A stretch of 61,403 nt of DNA, filler included, from Anaerolineae bacterium (lineage in GTDB: Bacteria; Chloroflexota; Anaerolineae; Epilineales; Epilineaceae), in NCBI GenBank assembly GCA_029262755.1. It is 6 parts of 6 records of this genome, joined end to end, with 100 filler letters (N's around TTAATTAATTAA, not from the genome) between each part and the next. Parts side by side here need not be neighbours in the genome. Positions count along the whole stretch, not along the records: positions 11,454 to 32,673 come from JAJCYU010000113.1; 5 more parts are not named here. One strand, given 5' to 3'. The notes beneath the pieces were generated by a model. That model saw nothing but the letters and a program-made list of their open reading frames with translations, did not search any database and had not been told where the DNA came from. How positions within the stretch are numbered: the stretch's first letter is position 1; every line of letters begins with the position of its first letter. Shown here piece by piece: positions 11,354 to 32,773 of this stretch. A program made the translations under genes and the position numbers.

Positions 11354-11453
11354 NNNNNNNNNNNNNNNNNNNNNNNNNNNNNNNNNNNNNNNNNNNNTTA
11401 ATTAATTAANNNNNNNNNNNNNNNNNNNNNNNNNNNNNNNNNNNNNNNNNNNN
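11354..11453. other. Artificial contig spacer
   Basis: N44-TTAATTAATTAA-N44, stops in all six frames; identical at five sites. Confidence 0.99.
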
Positions 11454-19709: not shown

Positions 19710-19732
19710 ACGAGCCCCGTCAACGGGCCGTG

Positions 19733-19765
19733 AAAAAGCGCCGCGGACCCGTGGGGTCGCGGCGC
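19733..19765. terminator. Intrinsic terminator hairpin (U-tract on minus strand) after ygfZ
   Basis: AAAAA-GCGCCGCgGACCC gtg GGGTCGCGGCGC, 12 bp with one bulge. Confidence 0.65.
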
Positions 19766-19771
19766 GGTGGC

Positions 19772-19801
19772 TTGACACAATTTCCGGCGGTCGGGTACAA
19801 T
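19772..19801 (+). promoter_or_regulatory. Near-consensus sigma70 promoter with no downstream CDS
   Basis: TTGACA-N18-TACAAT; predicted +1 about 19808. Confidence 0.8.
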
Positions 19802-19807
19802 GCGCGT

Positions 19808-19875
19808 GGAAAGGAGAGCCGCGTCCTACCCTTCCCCCCCTGTCCCTCGGGCGGACGCGGCTCTCTTTTCCTTTT
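19808..19875 (+). ncRNA. Candidate small RNA: 19-bp hairpin, C-rich loop, U-tract
   Basis: Stem 19808-19826/19853-19871 (18 WC pairs + 1 GU), loop UACCCUUCCCCCCCUGUCCCUCGGGC, followed by UUUU. Begins 7 nt after the -10. Confidence 0.65.
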
Positions 19876-20049
19876 CCCCCCAAACGGCACTGCGTACGGT
19901 GCCGCCGGATGAGCTTCCCCGATCGTCCCGTAGGTCACGATTGCGGATTCTCGCCCTACATAACGGGTTCTCGGCGGACGAAGATACGGGTGCCTGACGA
20001 AATTAATATTGCGCGGTACCGCAGCACCGAGAAGTCGACTCCAACAGAC

Positions 20050-20076
20050 AAAACGCCCGTCTTCGCGACGGGCGTT
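20050..20076 (-). terminator. Rho-independent terminator of the ECF/anti-sigma operon
   Basis: Minus strand AACGCCCGTC gcgaa GACGGGCGTTTT. Confidence 0.8.
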
Positions 20077-20153
20077 CGTGCGTCTTTGATCCATTGTGTC
20101 TGCGTAGGTGGTGGGGTGCCATGCCTTGGACGTAGCGTGCCGCGCGGTGAAGG

Positions 20154-21560
20154 CTACGGCAGCTGGGGATCTTCCATCGGCGGCGGCCCGACGATGGGCG
20201 GCGGCTGACTGCCCGGACCCTCGGCCCCACCCGGATCGGGCGCGACCACCGGCGGCGGCTGATCGCCACCACCTGCGCCCGGCTGCGTGGGCTCACCCGG
20301 CGACGGAGCGCCGACCGCAGGCTCGCCGCCACCGACAGCAGGCCCCGGTGCACTAGCCGTGCTTGGCTCGGGCGACGGCTCGTCGTCGACCTCGCGTTGC
20401 ACGACCGGCGGCGGAGGCGGCGCGTTGCCGGGCTCCGGCGCGGGCTCGGGCACGGAAACCTCTGCAGGCGCACCAGGCGTCGGCGCTTCGCTGATCGGCG
20501 AGCGAACCGGCTCGATATCAAGCTCGACAACCGGACCCGGCGATTCCTCGACCGGTAGCGGTCGCGGGGCGCTGCTCGGCGACCAATCCAAGGGGATCGG
20601 CAGCTTCGCAGGCATGTCCGGGACGATGTCTTCGGGAACGCTCGGCAACAGGACGTCGCGCACAGCCGGGTCCAATCGGCGCGATGCGTCCTCGTCAGCC
20701 TCCAACGCAGCCGCGAGCATCGCCCGCTGATCGTGGCTCAGCCGCGCAATCTCATCGACCGATGCGGCACCTTGATCGAGGAATTCACGCATCAAGTCCT
20801 CAGGTACGGTGCGGCCGTTGTCGAGCAACGCGCGCATTTCGAGCAAACGACGGGCATCGAAACGTGCCCGCAACGTGGTCTTCAGATCGGGGTCAAAGGC
20901 GAAGAGCATCTGCGCATCTTCACCGAATCGCTTCATCGAGTACAGGCTGTCACCCGGCAGGCTGCTGGCCGCGGCCGTACCGACCTGGGCGACACCGGCG
21001 AGTCCGACGGCCAGGCTGAGTGCAGCGGCCATGGCTCCCGTAGCAAGGCGACGTCCCCATGTTGGTCGCGGGACGAGGCCACCAAGGACGCCGCGTGCCG
21101 TGACGTTCGAGCGCGTTTCCGCGCGCAACGCGGCACGCCGCTCGGTAGCCAGAGCCATCAAACGCGCCTTGCCCTGCGCGAACGTTTCCGCGGCGGGCAT
21201 GGGCGTTGGGGTGGTTTCCATTCTGTGGGCGGCCAAGATGGCCGGGTGAAGCGCGACGGGCAATCGCGTGAGCAGATCGTCCAGCGGAACGCCGGCTCGA
21301 ACCTCGACCACAACGCCTTCGACCGTCTCGACCTCGCGTCGCCGACGGGCGACCGTGGCCATCAACTCCGCCTTGTTCTCTAGGCGGCGTCGGGGCGGCG
21401 GCGCGATCTCGCGCATCCAGGCGGAAGCGGCCAGCGCAGGCCGAAGCTCGTCGGCATGCGCCGGGAAACCAGCCAAGACCTCTTCGAGGTCGGCTCCCTC
21501 ATTAAGTTGGGAGAGGCACTTGTCCAACAAGTGCTCAAGCTGGAACCTCACCGCGTTCAC
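20154..21560 (-). CDS. DUF5667-domain putative anti-sigma factor with Pro-rich tail
   Basis: Overlaps the ECF sigma 3' end. LDKCLSQLNEGADLEEVLAGFPAHADELRPAL N-domain (loosely duplicated), TM helix, AASSLPGDSLYSMKRFGEDAQMLF motif. Confidence 0.82.
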   Translation of the reverse strand: MNAVRFQLEHLLDKCLSQLNEGADLEEVLAGFPAHADELRPALAASAWMREIAPPPRRRLENKAELMATVARRRREVETVEGVVVEVRAGVPLDDLLTRLPVALHPAILAAHRMETTPTPMPAAETFAQGKARLMALATERRAALRAETRSNVTARGVLGGLVPRPTWGRRLATGAMAAALSLAVGLAGVAQVGTAAASSLPGDSLYSMKRFGEDAQMLFAFDPDLKTTLRARFDARRLLEMRALLDNGRTVPEDLMREFLDQGAASVDEIARLSHDQRAMLAAALEADEDASRRLDPAVRDVLLPSVPEDIVPDMPAKLPIPLDWSPSSAPRPLPVEESPGPVVELDIEPVRSPISEAPTPGAPAEVSVPEPAPEPGNAPPPPPVVQREVDDEPSPEPSTASAPGPAVGGGEPAVGAPSPGEPTQPGAGGGDQPPPVVAPDPGGAEGPGSQPPPIVGPPPMEDPQLP

Positions 21561-22083
21561 CTAATACCCTTCCTAGGCTTGCGAGCGCGCGGTGCTGCAA
21601 CGACTTTACCGCGCCCTCTGTTTTCCCAAGGATCTGAGCAACCTCAAGATTGCTCAGCCCGTCTACGAACTTCAGGATGACCACTTGCTGCTGGTCGTCC
21701 GTGAGCTCCGATAGCGCCCTGCGGAGTTGATGATGCGCAAACTCCGATTCCAGCACGCCCGTCGGGTGCTCGAGTGATGCGACCAACTTCTCTTCGAGCG
21801 AAACCGCCGACTGCGACGGTTGGCGCCGGAAATGGTCGACCACCAAGTTGCTGGCGATCCGATACAGCCAAGCCGAGAAGGGTACGCCGCGGAAGCTATA
21901 GGTGTCGATCGCTTCCATCGCCTTGACGAAGACCTCCATCGTGAGGTCCTCGGCAAGCGACTGCTCGCCCACTCGATAAAAGATGTATCGGTATACACCG
22001 TTGTAAAACCGCTCGTAGATCTCGCCAAATGCGTCAGGGTCGTAGCCCTGCGCCTTGCGGATCAAGTCATGCTCTTCCTGCAC
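21535..22083 (-). CDS. ECF RNA polymerase sigma-70 factor
   Basis: GTG at 22083 after GAGGA. AFGEIYERFYNGVYRYIFYRV, AEDLTMEVF, FSAWLYRIASN, LTDDQQQVVILKFVDGLSNLEVAQILGKTEGAVKSLQHRAL. Confidence 0.95.
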   Translation of the reverse strand: MQEEHDLIRKAQGYDPDAFGEIYERFYNGVYRYIFYRVGEQSLAEDLTMEVFVKAMEAIDTYSFRGVPFSAWLYRIASNLVVDHFRRQPSQSAVSLEEKLVASLEHPTGVLESEFAHHQLRRALSELTDDQQQVVILKFVDGLSNLEVAQILGKTEGAVKSLQHRALASLGRVLGERGEVPA

Positions 22084-22180
22084 AGGCGGCTTCCTCGTGA
22101 TGTTTAACGGGGGGGATAGGGGTCGAGATACGGCCTCGTGTGAGGAAAAGATTAAGGCGTGGGAGGCCGCAGCCGCGCCT

Positions 22181-22209: not shown

Positions 22210-23170
22210 CGCTTCGCGAGGGCTTCGACTTAATGTGCTCATCGAGCTTGTGAGCAACGGCAAACACGTCGTTCCCGACCAAGACACGCACCGGTGTGCG
22301 CATCGCTGCAGCGGCGATCCAACGCACCGCCGGCCTTCGAAGGACCGGATATCCTCGGGCTCGTTGCGGATCGGGATACGCCCGCTCCGCACCGCGCATC
22401 GCATGTCGGGTCGACCACTCTTCCACCCACACACGACCGATCAATCCCGCCCGCCGCAGCGCCAAGTGTAAGGAGCGCGGCGACTGTTCGTTGACGTGGA
22501 CCTTGTGCTCGTATTCCGACCGGGGGCTGGTTGGAATGTCCGGACTGAGCATCCGCAACAGTGGGTATGCCACCGTCAAGGCCCAGCGATTGGGCAATGT
22601 ATGGACGACGACGCGACCCCGGCTACTTAAGATACGGTGAACCTCGTTCAAGCACTGGCTAAGCTGCCACGGATGCAGATGCTCCACGACGTCCAGCAAC
22701 AGCACCCGGTCGGCCGAGCCATCCGCTAACGGGATTCGGCCGGCGTCGGCGGCCAGACAGTGGACGCTGCCGATACTGTGGTCGCTGCCGACACGGTGGT
22801 CGCTTCCGACACGGTGGTCGCTGCCGACAGCGGACGCCGCGCTCCCGGCCCCGGCCCGATCGCGCGCCGCTGACAGCACCCGCTCGCATGTTCCGCGCGT
22901 CAAGGTCAGCGCGTCCGGGCTGTAATCGACCGCCGTCACGCGTGCTCCGGCCAATGCGGCGTGTGACGCTGCTTCACCGCGCCCGCAGCCGATGTCCACC
23001 ACGTGTTGTCCCGCTTCGATGCCGGCCAGCGCCAAGGAGCGCGCGAGCCGCGGCCGGAGCGTCCGTCCCTGCTGCGCGAGAAAGTCCTCGTGCTCTCCGG
23101 CAGCGAACATCTGCAAGAGTTCGGCGCGATAGAGTTGGGCGGGCACGGGCACGGGACGCGCCGCCGTCAC
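22184..23170 (-). CDS. Class I SAM-dependent methyltransferase
   Basis: VVDIGCGRGE, AVDYS, ADAGRIPLADGSADRVLLLDVVEHL. GTGA overlap with the upstream gene. Confidence 0.88.
   Translation of the reverse strand: MTAARPVPVPAQLYRAELLQMFAAGEHEDFLAQQGRTLRPRLARSLALAGIEAGQHVVDIGCGRGEAASHAALAGARVTAVDYSPDALTLTRGTCERVLSAARDRAGAGSAASAVGSDHRVGSDHRVGSDHSIGSVHCLAADAGRIPLADGSADRVLLLDVVEHLHPWQLSQCLNEVHRILSSRGRVVVHTLPNRWALTVAYPLLRMLSPDIPTSPRSEYEHKVHVNEQSPRSLHLALRRAGLIGRVWVEEWSTRHAMRGAERAYPDPQRARGYPVLRRPAVRWIAAAAMRTPVRVLVGNDVFAVAHKLDEHIKSKPSRSVDPSRGIR
22760..22831. repeat. 18-bp tandem repeat x4 (VGSDHR) in the methyltransferase
   Basis: GTGGTCGCTGCCGACACG units with minor variants. Confidence 0.9.
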
Positions 23171-26100
23171 GGCGTCTCGGCCTCCGCGGCCTGCAACAGG
23201 GTGCGCGGAAGATAGATCTCGTCCCGCGCGCGCCCGCACACGTCGAAGGTGACGTCGTCGAGCACGAGGGCCGTTACGTCGCCGCGGGCCCCTACCTCGT
23301 CCCGATTGAGGACCGCAAGGTAGAGCGTGACGTCGTGCGCGGCCGTCGGCGCGTTGGGGGCGTCGAGTCCGAAGGCGGCTAGGATCGCTTCGTCGATCGG
23401 CAGGGCCAGGCGCGACCAGAGCCCCGGTCGTCCGGGCGGAGGCCCGGCATACAGCACGTGCCGGGCGCCATCCGTTTCGCGTCGGATCTCCGCGACGAAC
23501 ACATCGCCTTCCGCGATCGAGCGCGGCTGCATCCACAGTGAAAGCGTGCCCGAGACGACCTCCCGCGGCAGGCGCATCGTGCGCCGAGCCCCCGCATACC
23601 CGAAGCCGTCCTCGGCCGCCTCGAGCAGGCCGAGCTGTAGCGCGGCCGCGCCGCCGTGGTTCGGCTCGTCGATGCGGACGGCCGGTTGATCGCCGACGAC
23701 GCGCCACGCACCGAGCTCGGACGCCTCAAAGCCGCCCCCTTCCAATGCCGCGACGCAAGCGAGTGGACGTTCACCGCTTCCCACCGTGGAGGTCGGTCGA
23801 GGCGTCGGCACGGCGTCCGGCGTCCGGGGCGGCGGGTAGCCGGAGGGGTCGGGTGTAGCGGTTGGCTCCGTGTCGGGCGTCTCGGTGCCCGCCGGCGGCT
23901 CGCGCAGCGGTGTGCAGGCCTCGAGGCTGACCTCATCCACCCGCAGATAGCTCTTGCGTCCGTCGCCGTCGTTGATGACCCCGAAGTACAAGGTGAGCGC
24001 TTCACCGCCCCGAGCTTGCAGGATGTCCGTCACGTCGAAGGCGTGGGTCGTCCACGCGCTATTGGCCGGCAGGGCGACGCCGCCGAGGCCGACGACCTTC
24101 CCGTCGGCGTCGAATACGCGGACCATCCGGGTGTCGCTGCTCTGACCCGCGGTCTTCGCCTGGAACCGCAGCTGCGCACGGCTCACACCCGAGGGCACCG
24201 CGACGGACTGGGAGGCCGAGGCAAAGCTACGTACGTCATCGGGGTCGGCGTCACGCAGGCCGACGAACATGGCCTGCACGCCGGACCGAACGTCCCAGCG
24301 GGTGAAGAAGGCCCGGTTGAGGCGCCACGCCTGGTCGTCCCCGTCCTCGAAGCCGCCGTCCGTGACCAGGTCACGGCAACCCACGGGCAGCGCCGTTGGC
24401 GTCGGTCCTGCCGTCGCCGTGGGCCGCGGCGTCGCGGTCGGCGGCGCGGTCGGTCGCGGATCCGGCGAGCCGGCACGAAGCTCCGCCATGCGCGCGACGA
24501 CGCCGGTGCGCAGCCCCGAGAGCTGAGCGTGGAGACCCTCGCCCGGGCACACCGTGTGGCCCGGCAGGGCATCCCGGTGGCCCATGATGCGGTGCGCGAA
24601 CCGTGTGCCCGCAAGCTCGACCGTAGCCTGGGGATCGATGTCGTAGCGCACGGCTCGCCTGGCCAGCAGCTCGACCAGCGAACCGTAGGCCGTCGCGCGG
24701 GGTTCTTGCTCAGCCGCCGTGAACGTGCCGAGCATGGCCACGCCGATCGTGTTGGGGTTGTACTGTCTTGCGTGGCCGCCCTGCACGACCAAATCGCCGC
24801 GTTCACCGCCGAAGCGTCCTTCATAGATGTTGCCGCGGTCGTCGATCAGCACGTTGTAGCCGATGTCGCCCCAGCCACGGGTGATGGCATGGAAGTGATA
24901 GATGGAACGGACGACCGCGGCCGGATCCACCGGATCGTTCGACGTGACCGTATGGTGGACGATCAACGCGCGCGGCTGGGTGTAGCGCGGCGGCCACACG
25001 ACGTCGCCGTCGTCATCGAGACGGAGCGACTCGTCCGCGCCCCACGCGGCGCGCGTGATGACCGGGGGCCCATCGTCCTCGCCCGCGGCCGTGACCTCGC
25101 CCGCGACCGATAGCGCACCGACGCCGCCTGCGCCGCGCCCCGTTCCTGTCGGCGCTCGGCTGGCGGAGGCCGCGATACGCGGAGCACGCGGACCTTCATC
25201 CGCATCGAGATAGTGGATGGTCAGCGCGCCGATGCGGGGCGCGTCGTCGGACAGGGCGATCACGCGCACCTGCGCGAAGCGACCGCGTGCGATCCACAGC
25301 CGCGTCCAATGCTCGGCCTCGGGCCCGCGGCGCAACCCGTCGTCATCGGTGACGAGTTCTTCCCACGCGGACCAGATGTCGCCATCTCGGCTGACGCGCG
25401 CCTCCAGACGCAAGCCCGCGCCATCGGGGCGTACGGCGAGCGGCGTGGCATCTACGGCTTCGTCGATCCCGTCGGCCGAAGCATTGGTCGAGGCCGCGTT
25501 ATCATCCGCATCTTCGACCCCCTCGGCTTCATCTGAAGCGGGAGCGGGCGTAGCATCCCGTTCGCCTTCCGATGCGTCGTCGTCCGTTTGCGGCGCCGGC
25601 TCCTCGAGCCAGCGAACAGCCAGAGCCATGAAGGGGAAATCGGCCTCGACAACCGGGCCCTCGAAAACGAGATTCGGTCCCGTGTCCCCATCGGCCGCCG
25701 CGGCCAGCGCCGCGATCTCCGGCTCATCGTCCTCCGTGGCGGCGGGAGCCGTCAGGTCCAGCTCGTGGGAACCGGATTGCACGGGCGCGGGGGTGGGTCC
25801 GCGAGCGGGGCCGGGGCCGAAACCTGGCCCGGGATCCGAAGGTCGCGCAGCACGACCCGCGATCTCGGCGGAAGGTCCAGCGGACGAAGCGCCGTCTGCG
25901 TCGGAGGTAGGGCGATCTTCCGTGCGATCACCGCTGCGATCTTCGTCCGCGGTCGCGCCTGCGACCGCCGGGCCGTCCGGCGTCGAGGCGCCCGAGTCCG
26001 GCCCGCTTGGCTCGTCGAGTCCCCGTTCGTCGTTCGCGGCCCCTTCATCCGCACCGTCCGCTACATCTTCCGTTACATCTTCCGGTGCATCTTCCGCCGT

Positions 26101-27666
26101 TTCGTCCGATCGTCCCTCCGACTCGGACTGGGCGGCAACGTCCACTTCTCCGCCCTCCACGGTCACGACCGGCGTGAAACCGTCGGAGAAGCGGAACGCG
26201 AACGCGTGGAATCCCGCCTCGAGGGTCGACGTGAAGCGCCATGTGCTGCCCAGGCGATGATCGGTCCGGCCGTCGTCCTCCTCCGCCGCGAGGAGCATCG
26301 GCTGGGCTTGGCCGTCCAGGACGAGCTCCGCGACGGAGGGCGGGTCACCGTCGCCGTCTTGGTAGCGCACCGTGAACGTATGCACGGCGTCGCCGTCACC
26401 CGCGGTGTTCACGCCGACGCCTGCTTCGGATAGCCGCGGCGACTCCGGTAGCCGGACCCGCGCGCCCGTGTAGTAGTGATCGACGATCTCCGCGGCCGTC
26501 GCACCCCAGTCGGCCAAGACCGCTGCGCCCTCCTGGCTCATGCCTGCGCCATGGCCCCATCGACGCGCGAAGGGGTCCGGTGAGGCCACGCTGCGAAGGT
26601 GACCGACCTGCCGCCCGCCGCAACAGGGACTCTCTTCGCTGTCGAGCGTGCGCTCGGCGGCTCGGGCGAAGAAGAGTGCCTCGACGAGGCCGAGGCCCGG
26701 CGCCGACGTTCCGTCGATGCCGCGCACGACCTGGCCGGAGGTCGATTCCACGGCAGCGTCGCTGATGTCGTAGTGCACGGGCCGCCACACCTGAGTCCGC
26801 GTCGTCGTATCTACGTTGGCGTCCAAGCCGCGTTCGCAGCGCGTGGGATCCCCGGCCGTTTCGGGCAAGCATCGCGTAGCGGCATAGGTGCGCGACGCGA
26901 TGGCCTGGGCCTGCAACGCGCTGAACGCGCGACGGAAGACGTAGCCCATCTCGGTCGGCACCACACCCTTCAGGTACTCGTCCATATCCATCGCCATGAT
27001 TCGGCCGTCCGGCATCAAGACCCGCACGGAACGTGGAGTGTCGGTGATCACGGCGGCGGCCAGCAATGACAGGGCGGGCGGGTCCTCGCTCGCGGCGCTC
27101 AGCGGGGGGTCTTGTTCCGGGTCTTGGTCCTGGTCGACGCCGTCTTCGGTACCGGTGGAGGGCGGGCTATCCGCACGTGCGCGAACGGCGGCAGCGATCG
27201 CTGCCGCGGCGGCCGCGTCCGCCGCGACCGGCGGCAGCGCGATATCGAGTCTTGATGCGCCGTCGGCCCGCAGCGGGTCGAGCTCGTGGTCGATGGCCGT
27301 AGCGCCATGAAAACCGGGCGCCGTCACGCGAACGCGATAGTGCCCCGGCGGCAACGAGATGCGGTAGGTGCCCCGTGCGTCCGTCAGCCCGAGCGCGTCG
27401 CCGGCCCTTACCTGGGCCCCTGCGATTGGTTCGCCCGTGGCCAAGTCCGTGACCGTACCAACCAAGCGGCCGCTTCCGCGCGCATCGAGTGCGACGGAGC
27501 CGCTTGCAGTTGAAGACGGCGGAATACCTGCTTGGGCCCTGGCCGGATCAAGCGCGTAATAGCGCGCGCCCGCCACCAGCATCGCGGCAAGGATCGCCGG
27601 CGCGAGCAGCTGGGCGGCCGCCCTCCGGGCTAAGCCGCGACGCCGGTCGTACCGGCGCGGGATCAC
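23167..27666 (-). CDS. Secreted SpoIID/LytB lytic-transglycosylase + Amidase_2 multidomain peptidoglycan hydrolase (1499 aa)
   Basis: GTG 27666 (GTGA overlap), signal peptide, Ig domain; SpoIID motifs EYLKGVVPTEM, ALQAQAIASRTYA, GHGAGMSQEGA; amidase motifs IVHHT, GWGDIGYN, GHRD...CPG; two GGFE CBM-like domains; IYLP tail. Confidence 0.9.
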   Translation of the reverse strand: MIPRRYDRRRGLARRAAAQLLAPAILAAMLVAGARYYALDPARAQAGIPPSSTASGSVALDARGSGRLVGTVTDLATGEPIAGAQVRAGDALGLTDARGTYRISLPPGHYRVRVTAPGFHGATAIDHELDPLRADGASRLDIALPPVAADAAAAAAIAAAVRARADSPPSTGTEDGVDQDQDPEQDPPLSAASEDPPALSLLAAAVITDTPRSVRVLMPDGRIMAMDMDEYLKGVVPTEMGYVFRRAFSALQAQAIASRTYAATRCLPETAGDPTRCERGLDANVDTTTRTQVWRPVHYDISDAAVESTSGQVVRGIDGTSAPGLGLVEALFFARAAERTLDSEESPCCGGRQVGHLRSVASPDPFARRWGHGAGMSQEGAAVLADWGATAAEIVDHYYTGARVRLPESPRLSEAGVGVNTAGDGDAVHTFTVRYQDGDGDPPSVAELVLDGQAQPMLLAAEEDDGRTDHRLGSTWRFTSTLEAGFHAFAFRFSDGFTPVVTVEGGEVDVAAQSESEGRSDETAEDAPEDVTEDVADGADEGAANDERGLDEPSGPDSGASTPDGPAVAGATADEDRSGDRTEDRPTSDADGASSAGPSAEIAGRAARPSDPGPGFGPGPARGPTPAPVQSGSHELDLTAPAATEDDEPEIAALAAAADGDTGPNLVFEGPVVEADFPFMALAVRWLEEPAPQTDDDASEGERDATPAPASDEAEGVEDADDNAASTNASADGIDEAVDATPLAVRPDGAGLRLEARVSRDGDIWSAWEELVTDDDGLRRGPEAEHWTRLWIARGRFAQVRVIALSDDAPRIGALTIHYLDADEGPRAPRIAASASRAPTGTGRGAGGVGALSVAGEVTAAGEDDGPPVITRAAWGADESLRLDDDGDVVWPPRYTQPRALIVHHTVTSNDPVDPAAVVRSIYHFHAITRGWGDIGYNVLIDDRGNIYEGRFGGERGDLVVQGGHARQYNPNTIGVAMLGTFTAAEQEPRATAYGSLVELLARRAVRYDIDPQATVELAGTRFAHRIMGHRDALPGHTVCPGEGLHAQLSGLRTGVVARMAELRAGSPDPRPTAPPTATPRPTATAGPTPTALPVGCRDLVTDGGFEDGDDQAWRLNRAFFTRWDVRSGVQAMFVGLRDADPDDVRSFASASQSVAVPSGVSRAQLRFQAKTAGQSSDTRMVRVFDADGKVVGLGGVALPANSAWTTHAFDVTDILQARGGEALTLYFGVINDGDGRKSYLRVDEVSLEACTPLREPPAGTETPDTEPTATPDPSGYPPPRTPDAVPTPRPTSTVGSGERPLACVAALEGGGFEASELGAWRVVGDQPAVRIDEPNHGGAAALQLGLLEAAEDGFGYAGARRTMRLPREVVSGTLSLWMQPRSIAEGDVFVAEIRRETDGARHVLYAGPPPGRPGLWSRLALPIDEAILAAFGLDAPNAPTAAHDVTLYLAVLNRDEVGARGDVTALVLDDVTFDVCGRARDEIYLPRTLLQAAEAETP

Positions 27667-32673: not shown

Positions 32674-32773
32674 NNNNNNNNNNNNNNNNNNNNNNNNNNN
32701 NNNNNNNNNNNNNNNNNTTAATTAATTAANNNNNNNNNNNNNNNNNNNNNNNNNNNNNNNNNNNNNNNNNNNN
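32674..32773. other. Artificial contig spacer
   Basis: N44-TTAATTAATTAA-N44. Confidence 0.99.

Follow-up and report, generated by a model that had tools for sequence, protein, structure and literature searches.

Genes and features at the locus

The window, meaning the whole stretch of DNA analysed, comprises 61,403 nucleotides from the 5.06 Mb genome of an Anaerolineae bacterium (GCA_029262755.1, here G000). Other genomes are numbered with G, loci with L, families with f and genera with g. It is stitched together from several contigs, with N runs at 11354-11453 and 32674-32773 and three further N pairs, and only positions 11454-32673 form a single contig. On this contig a gene for a BldN-like ECF sigma factor overlaps a gene for a DUF5667 protein, which we take to be its anti-sigma factor from its position and an earlier label. 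Behind these genes lies what looks, from its sequence, like an undescribed small regulatory RNA (RNA-A) of one group of uncultured bacteria. The features of the locus are:

19731-19955, minus strand: predicted antisense RNA (RNA-B), about 225 nt, spanning RNA-A and its promoter, placed from a promoter and a terminator; no conserved ORF was seen
19733-19765, minus strand: intrinsic terminator that would end RNA-B
19772-19801, plus strand: sigmaA-type promoter of RNA-A, TTGACA-N18-TACAAT, strictly matched at 22 of the 24 homologous loci
19808-19871, plus strand: hairpin 1 of RNA-A, a long covarying stem with a CCC/GGG top helix and an open C-rich loop
19872-19881, plus strand: UUUU and a C6 linker, a possible first 3' end and, in the present clade, a second C-rich single strand
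19885-19904, plus strand: hairpin 2, variable in f1 and of the CAGGUGGGU...ACCCACCUG type in f2, f4 and f5
19907-19955, strand not assigned: hairpin 3, beginning where the antisense transcript is predicted to start
19962-19989, minus strand: BldN-like ECF promoter, CCGTATCT-N16-CGTT, facing RNA-A and found in 19 of 24 loci
20051-20077, minus strand: terminator of the ECF/anti-sigma operon, which sets the operon apart from RNA-B and may in addition halt read-through on the plus strand
20154-21551, minus strand: DUF5667 protein with a Pro-rich tail, the presumed anti-sigma factor; start GTG at 21551, with 21560 as an in-frame alternative
21535-22083, minus strand: BldN-like ECF sigma factor, for which TIGR02952 is by far the best family
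21565-21573, minus strand: GGAAGGGUA, the target proposed earlier for RNA-A, in the Gly-Arg-Val codons of the sigma C-terminus; not conserved
22106-22133, minus strand: presumed autoregulatory ECF promoter with the motif of 19962-19989, 22 nt before the ECF start

Promoter, fold and extent of RNA-A

An earlier, sequence-only reading of this DNA had named the promoter at 19772-19801 the best sigma70 promoter in the window, and it proved to be the sole sigma70-type site there with at least 10 of 12 matching positions. Genome-wide, 26 sites reach 11 of 12, this promoter among them. The 19-bp stem that the same reading drew from 19808 (19808-19826 with 19853-19871, one G-U pair, then UUUU) was likewise confirmed, with a folding z-score of -6.8. 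The 26-nt loop is present as drawn, but it is not open throughout, as a CCC/GGG helix (19829-19831 with 19849-19851) pairs three of the nine bases of the proposed seed. The part that remains open is 17 nt long (19832-19848), with the core CCCCCCUGUCCC at 19835-19846.

The RNA had also been described as a discrete unit of about 65 nt. The UUUU is present here, but the U-tract after hairpin 1 is kept only in genera g1, g8 and g10, so a length of 65 nt is tentative; RNA-A probably measures about 110-160 nt and forms two or three hairpins. A second hairpin was present on the 3' side in the loci folded, and hairpin 2, whose loop is not C-rich, is U-tailed in f2 and f4. No small ORF was conserved on either strand in alignments judged by eye, and a 182-aa plus-strand ORF gave no Pfam match.

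Conservation of RNA-A across the order

Of the 35 genomes of the order, 24, including G000, carry the promoter and the hairpin with its C-rich loop, in a single copy each. BLAST alignments against 40 relatives begin exactly at 19808, the best at 82-89% identity. A pattern made from the loop had one match per genome in 15 of the 35 genomes and none in reversed controls, and diverged copies in f4 and f5 were found in the DNA behind ECF orthologues. A model built from 20 copies matched 25 of the 35 genomes, of which G030 was discarded as a perfect palindrome with no promoter. The 24 that remained were distributed as 15 of 17 genomes in f1, 1 of 1 in f2, 3 of 6 in f4, 5 of 10 in f5 and 0 of 1 in f3; G002 and G021 were new matches outside the training set, and both were checked. 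Many genomes with no match are incomplete or contig-truncated, and in G029 (91% complete) the ECF gene is present and RNA-A was not detected. In two samples of 151 class genomes no convincing RNA-A was found outside the order (one weak 30-bit match to the first model), and a model match in G104 was rejected. The close ECF orthologue is equally confined to the order.

Across the 24 loci the sigmaA-type promoter was a strict match in 22, a variant in one (L036) and absent from one (L301), the genome that lacks it being G002. Its distance from the hairpin is near-fixed in 22-23 of the 24. Eleven of 16 stem pairs are altered on both sides, a number reached in 0 of 500 shuffles and compared with 3-6 pairs in slid controls, a figure that can be inflated by relatedness since related genomes are not independent. 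The loop is nearly invariant while the stem varies, and reads C5-6-xx-GUY, with five C, GU and the closing G as the letters invariant across the order. Several of the loop changes are C to U, which is tolerated opposite G. We regard it as very probable that RNA-A is a functional RNA.

At several RNA-A loci ygfZ is inverted or missing, and RNA-A is therefore not part of that gene; the element travels with the ECF operon or alone, and not with ygfZ. Linkage to the ECF operon in 22 of 24 loci bears out the earlier suggestion of an RNA gene tied to an ECF/anti-sigma locus.

Several pattern scans were also run. A back-translated anti-sigma pattern had 601 matches in genome contigs, none of them confirmed. 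The loop-pattern scan of contigs returned mostly unrelated taxa among the matches listed; L044, L066 and L097 were rejected as lacking the hairpin. A loose two-promoter pattern was positive in 253 of 401 genomes and in controls too, and was uninformative. One further pattern recovered three f5 loci and L233 and missed f1. L233 (G252:C30:6631-6711, from another order) combines a sigmaA promoter with a CCCCCCCGUGUCCCC stretch, both located ahead of a different ECF gene (33% identity) and on its strand; the fold differs from the RNA-A hairpin, and model R1 gave no match.

Comparison with known RNA families

6C and cuckoo RNAs use an accessible C-rich loop as a targeting device, and RNA-A similarly carries an open, conserved C-rich loop on a covarying stem, the feature by which C-rich-loop sRNAs are recognised. 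Rfam 15 gave no matches at the gathering threshold in the window and 16 further loci, and E-value scans gave sub-threshold matches only. The 6C family (RF01066) had no match in G000, with a control that matched 1 of 14 genomes only, below the cut-off. CcsR1 scored 12.2 bits against 65.3, and the repeated CCUCCUCCC loops of cuckoo/CcsR RNAs are absent from alignments A1-A3. RNA-A did not match 6S RNA (RF00013). The sole 6S-like match in the genome lies elsewhere, on the minus strand at L237 (G000:C264:1101-1282; 35.7 bits, E 2.4e-5, under the Rfam cut-off). We found no literature account of RNA-A or of an ECF-linked sRNA in Anaerolineae; supplementary motif catalogues could list RNA-A. The suggestion that this is a new, unrecognised sRNA family thus held, with no Rfam match and with promoter, stem and loop conserved.

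The ECF sigma factor and its predicted regulon

The ECF protein scored 186.4 bits against TIGR02952, under the cut-off of 206.45, and is thus BldN-like and not a formal member. In a structure search 6dxo_A was the only PDB match at E<=1e-20. The DUF5667 protein had no significant PDB match. BldN is described as recognising CGTAAC-N16-CGTTGA (PMC2375139). Of 30 genomes examined, 28 carry the related motif ahead of the ECF gene; in G000 it occurs at 18 sites with a spacer of 16 versus 0-4 sites at other spacers, and in the window three times against 0.41 expected. From these sequence patterns we infer that the motif is the promoter of this ECF sigma factor. The third match in the window (22610-22637) lies inside a methyltransferase CDS, points toward the ECF gene and recurs in relatives; it is probably a by-product of conserved codons.

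Twenty of 22 motif sites in G000 have a downstream ORF; by a crude criterion, 13 of these 20 encode a hydrophobic N-terminus, compared with a background of 28%. DUF11 repeats were present in 6 of the 15 downstream ORFs scanned. The predicted regulon (about 22 sites; e.g. L316, L318, L321, L326, L327 and L330) consists mostly of huge secreted proteins of up to about 4800 aa, and also includes a UvrA-like ABC protein and a BTAD regulator. At L331 (G000:C84:16300-16900, minus strand) about 200 nt of structured sequence lie downstream of a motif site and close with a long hairpin; they contain no clear ORF, gave no Rfam match and are a candidate for a second ECF-dependent ncRNA.

Other observations concern related genes. 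In f5 (L217-L226) the anti-sigma protein is much longer (above 800 aa where the locus is complete) and has a repeated module at its N-terminus; about 200 nt upstream of the first ECF-type motif lies a second one. A paralogous ECF gene (52% identity) at G000:C65:263-4362 is followed by the gene of a 1161-aa protein with a similar N-terminus, whose G-rich start region ranked 22nd for the RNA-A loop. Upstream of the ECF locus, at 23167-27465, the window encodes a very large protein with SpoIID, amidase and carboxypeptidase-regulatory domains. RNase III is present in the genome; Hfq was not found in this 84% complete assembly.

A predicted antisense promoter facing RNA-A

The ECF-type promoter at 19962-19989 was overlooked in the sequence-only reading, which had proposed that the RNA could release the sigma factor. 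Lying antisense to RNA-A, it suggests that the sigma factor acts on RNA-A, which reverses the likely direction of control. In all f1 homologues the opposite strand reads CGTATC-N16/17-CGTT some 95-130 nt beyond the loop. By family, the antisense motif was present in 15 of 15 loci in f1, 1 of 1 in f2, 3 of 3 in f4 and 0 of 5 in f5, and both motifs, sigmaA and facing ECF, occur together in 18 of 24 loci (17 strict and the L036 variant). The predicted promoters are convergent and independently regulated around a non-coding overlap, the arrangement of an sRNA and its antagonist. The cassettes of G017 and G021 are found apart from the ECF operon, still with both promoters. We consider it likely that the antisense promoter is used. 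Because a promoter of this type, matching the stress sigma factor encoded nearby, is directed at RNA-A in most loci, stress may switch RNA-A off.

The two terminator hairpins that had been drawn around the RNA are present, but the U-tracts of both lie on the minus strand, so that they bracket the antisense unit and not RNA-A. A minus-strand terminator candidate was found within 55 nt of the -35 element in 9 of 15 loci tested. All five f5 loci retain the sigmaA promoter and both hairpins and lack the antisense promoter, which argues that RNA-A is primary and stands alone. G002 has the ECF promoter only, with a degenerate loop. Folding energies and counts of G-U and A-C positions favoured neither strand in f1. 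The invariant loop is not explicable by pairing in cis, which would imply a partner in trans.

Search for targets of RNA-A

The sequence-only reading had proposed that the loop pairs with the RBS of the anti-sigma gene, 4 nt before its GTG. The identity between the loop 9-mer at 19827-19835 and 21565-21573 is exact and does not extend further. The conserved GTG, however, is at 21551 in 14 of 14 family loci examined, not at 21560, so that the 9-mer site lies within the sigma CDS, 14-22 nt ahead of the start. Genome-wide there are 19 copies of the 9-mer. A complement of any loop 9-mer is found in just 9 of 3224 called start regions (about 0.3% per gene), and the match is therefore unusual within G000 alone. 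The 9-mer is conserved on neither side and is unique to this genome, cognate pairs performed no better than non-cognate ones, and the proposed seed and target are not supported. Loop/RBS co-conservation was thus not found, in contrast to the expected conservation and covariation of promoter, stem and loop, which were.

Ranking by the 9-mer puts the anti-sigma gene first (tied) by construction. With the conserved loop its start ranked 925-1031 of 3192, and 437-485 of 3138 when accessibility was included, so it did not emerge as the top target. These ranks cover one whole genome (G000) and are approximate, since its genes come from a rough caller. In relatives the anti-sigma start region is G-rich and lies in the top 0.4-10% for the loop in 11 of 14 family loci, with f5 reaching the top 22-48% only. 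The G-richness is forced by the peptide Leu-Gly-Arg-x-Leu-Gly-Glu, and the region beat a synonymous-codon null (p<0.05) in two of nine genera (g8 and g4).

No orthologous trans target shared among relatives was found, and in 47 loci the perfect complements lying ahead of start codons had no orthologue in common. A Crp-like candidate was rejected as it was found in only one of five relatives. Among 18 leaders of the ECF regulon, loop complements were only marginally and non-significantly enriched (Fisher p = 0.066).

Discussion

The reading that we prefer, with moderate confidence, is that RNA-A is a housekeeping C-loop sRNA and that antisense transcription driven by the ECF factor silences it. 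RNA-A would be non-coding and made constitutively from its sigmaA promoter, and its open C-rich loop would pair in trans with G-rich stretches of mRNAs and repress them, probably independently of Hfq. Once released, the BldN-like ECF factor would fire its own operon, the surface-protein regulon and the promoter at 19989-19962. The last would yield RNA-B, fully complementary to RNA-A and running through it and its promoter, which could lower RNA-A through duplex formation and RNase III decay and/or transcriptional interference. The proposed lowering of RNA-A would in turn lift the repression. This model builds on the conservation of both promoters, stem covariation, the invariant loop, linkage and motif enrichment; from these we infer the transcription and the ends of either RNA, the reading of the motif by this sigma factor, function by base-pairing and the antagonism.

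More doubtful is the extension to a self-contained switch, in which the C-loop sRNA holds down G-rich mRNAs, possibly those of the anti-sigma factor and of the ECF factor's own surface-protein regulon, and the ECF factor removes the sRNA by antisense transcription. If true, de-repression and a feedback loop would be added to the action of a pure activator, and the loop would govern development of the surface coat or of filaments in an uncultured order of Chloroflexota.

An explanation that stays nearer to the first proposal is that RNA-A binds the G-rich stretch where the sigma CDS ends, together with the anti-sigma start, and so lowers anti-sigma synthesis, with RNA-B closing a negative feedback (the ECF factor induces RNA-B, which represses RNA-A, which represses the anti-sigma factor). 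The perfect 9-bp match, rare as it is among start regions (9/3224), the linkage in 22/24 loci, the bipartite pairing in the top 0.4-10% in 11/14 family loci, and, in 6 of the 19 loci that contain the ECF gene, a top helix of at least 9 bp within this operon region all point that way. We nevertheless think it unlikely, because the seed is unconserved, partly paired and without cognate preference, and because the site lies within translated, overlapping CDS, ranks at 437-485/3138 here and fares poorly in f5; the codon null was beaten only in g8 and g4, and other Gly codons of the ECF genes are also GGG-biased. The absence of a conserved mRNA complement from our searches would suit a C-rich loop that serves as a protein-binding or decoy site (e.g. 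for a KH-domain or Rho-type partner), the antisense control being unchanged, as would the invariant GU core and the lack of the canonical anti-SD CCUCC in the loop. The C-to-U variation, compatible with pairing to G, and the documented use of C/U-rich loops as pairing devices (PMC8687705) speak for pairing, and we rate a protein site as improbable.

Equally improbable, in our view, is a reading in which the main effector is RNA-B, acting as an ECF-dependent sRNA as MicA and RybB do for sigmaE, with its G-rich loop or its 5' end as the seed, and in which RNA-A is its constitutive buffer. Both flanking terminators face the minus strand, G002 retains the ECF promoter alone, and a GACUAGGGUGAG-like 5' single strand is conserved in one f1 subgroup; the loop of G002 is degenerate, however, five f5 genomes have RNA-A without an ECF promoter, and the f5 minus strand folds inconsistently. 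That the locus holds no functional RNA, only a terminator or repeat that is conserved and has promoters by chance, we regard as highly improbable. Hairpins are common in GC-rich DNA, but this one is single-copy, has a 17-nt open loop and a covarying stem, keeps its promoter at a near-fixed distance in 22-23/24 loci, and moves with the ECF operon or alone and not with ygfZ.

For the preferred reading, antisense silencing of a housekeeping sRNA, the nearest parallel is Campylobacter jejuni CJnc190, described as repressing a G-rich RBS through a C/U-rich loop, with CJnc180 as its cis-antisense antagonist, RNase III and no Hfq (PMC8687705). The pair predicted here from sequence shares the C-rich-loop sRNA, the cis-antisense partner, RNase III and, so far as the 84% complete assembly shows, the lack of Hfq. 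It differs in that the antagonist's promoter matches an ECF sigma factor encoded next to it, and in that our searches yielded no target here; a relationship in sequence is not expected. In E. coli the overlapping sRNAs SdsR and RyeA are described as having sigma70 and alternative-sigma promoters and as acting through mutual decay and transcriptional interference (PMC6610125). Our predicted RNAs likewise overlap and have one sigma70-type and one alternative-sigma promoter, but the effector there is the sigmaS RNA SdsR, whereas here the sigmaA RNA appears to be the effector and the alternative sigma is an ECF factor. An accessible C-rich loop as the likely targeting device is shared with H. pylori RepG and S. 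aureus RsaE/RNAIII, as described in the cited accounts (PMC8687705, PMC11188477). Unlike these and the 6C and cuckoo RNAs, RNA-A has one C-loop hairpin and no CCUCC/UCCC repeats.

The ECF-linked sRNAs MicA, RybB and MicL are described as giving their sigma factor a repression arm (PMC8103513); here, by contrast, the ECF factor would remove an sRNA. The circuit is apparently richer than first proposed and its logic of a known kind, and the locus offers an apparently undescribed, conserved RNA family whose structure is defined, whose two promoters are predicted and whose regulator can be named. For the sigma factor itself the closest match in family and structure is Streptomyces BldN/RsbN, with a near-identical promoter motif (PMC6101532, PMC2375139). 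The ECF factor here falls under the TIGR02952 cut-off, and the cited passages on BldN/RsbN mention no comparable RNA pair. Surface proteins figure in both regulons, chaplins and rodlins being described under Streptomyces BldN and DUF11 giants being predicted here. The BldN-like motif and the giant surface-protein regulon hint that filamentous Chloroflexota and Streptomyces share a related sigma factor for their surface coats.
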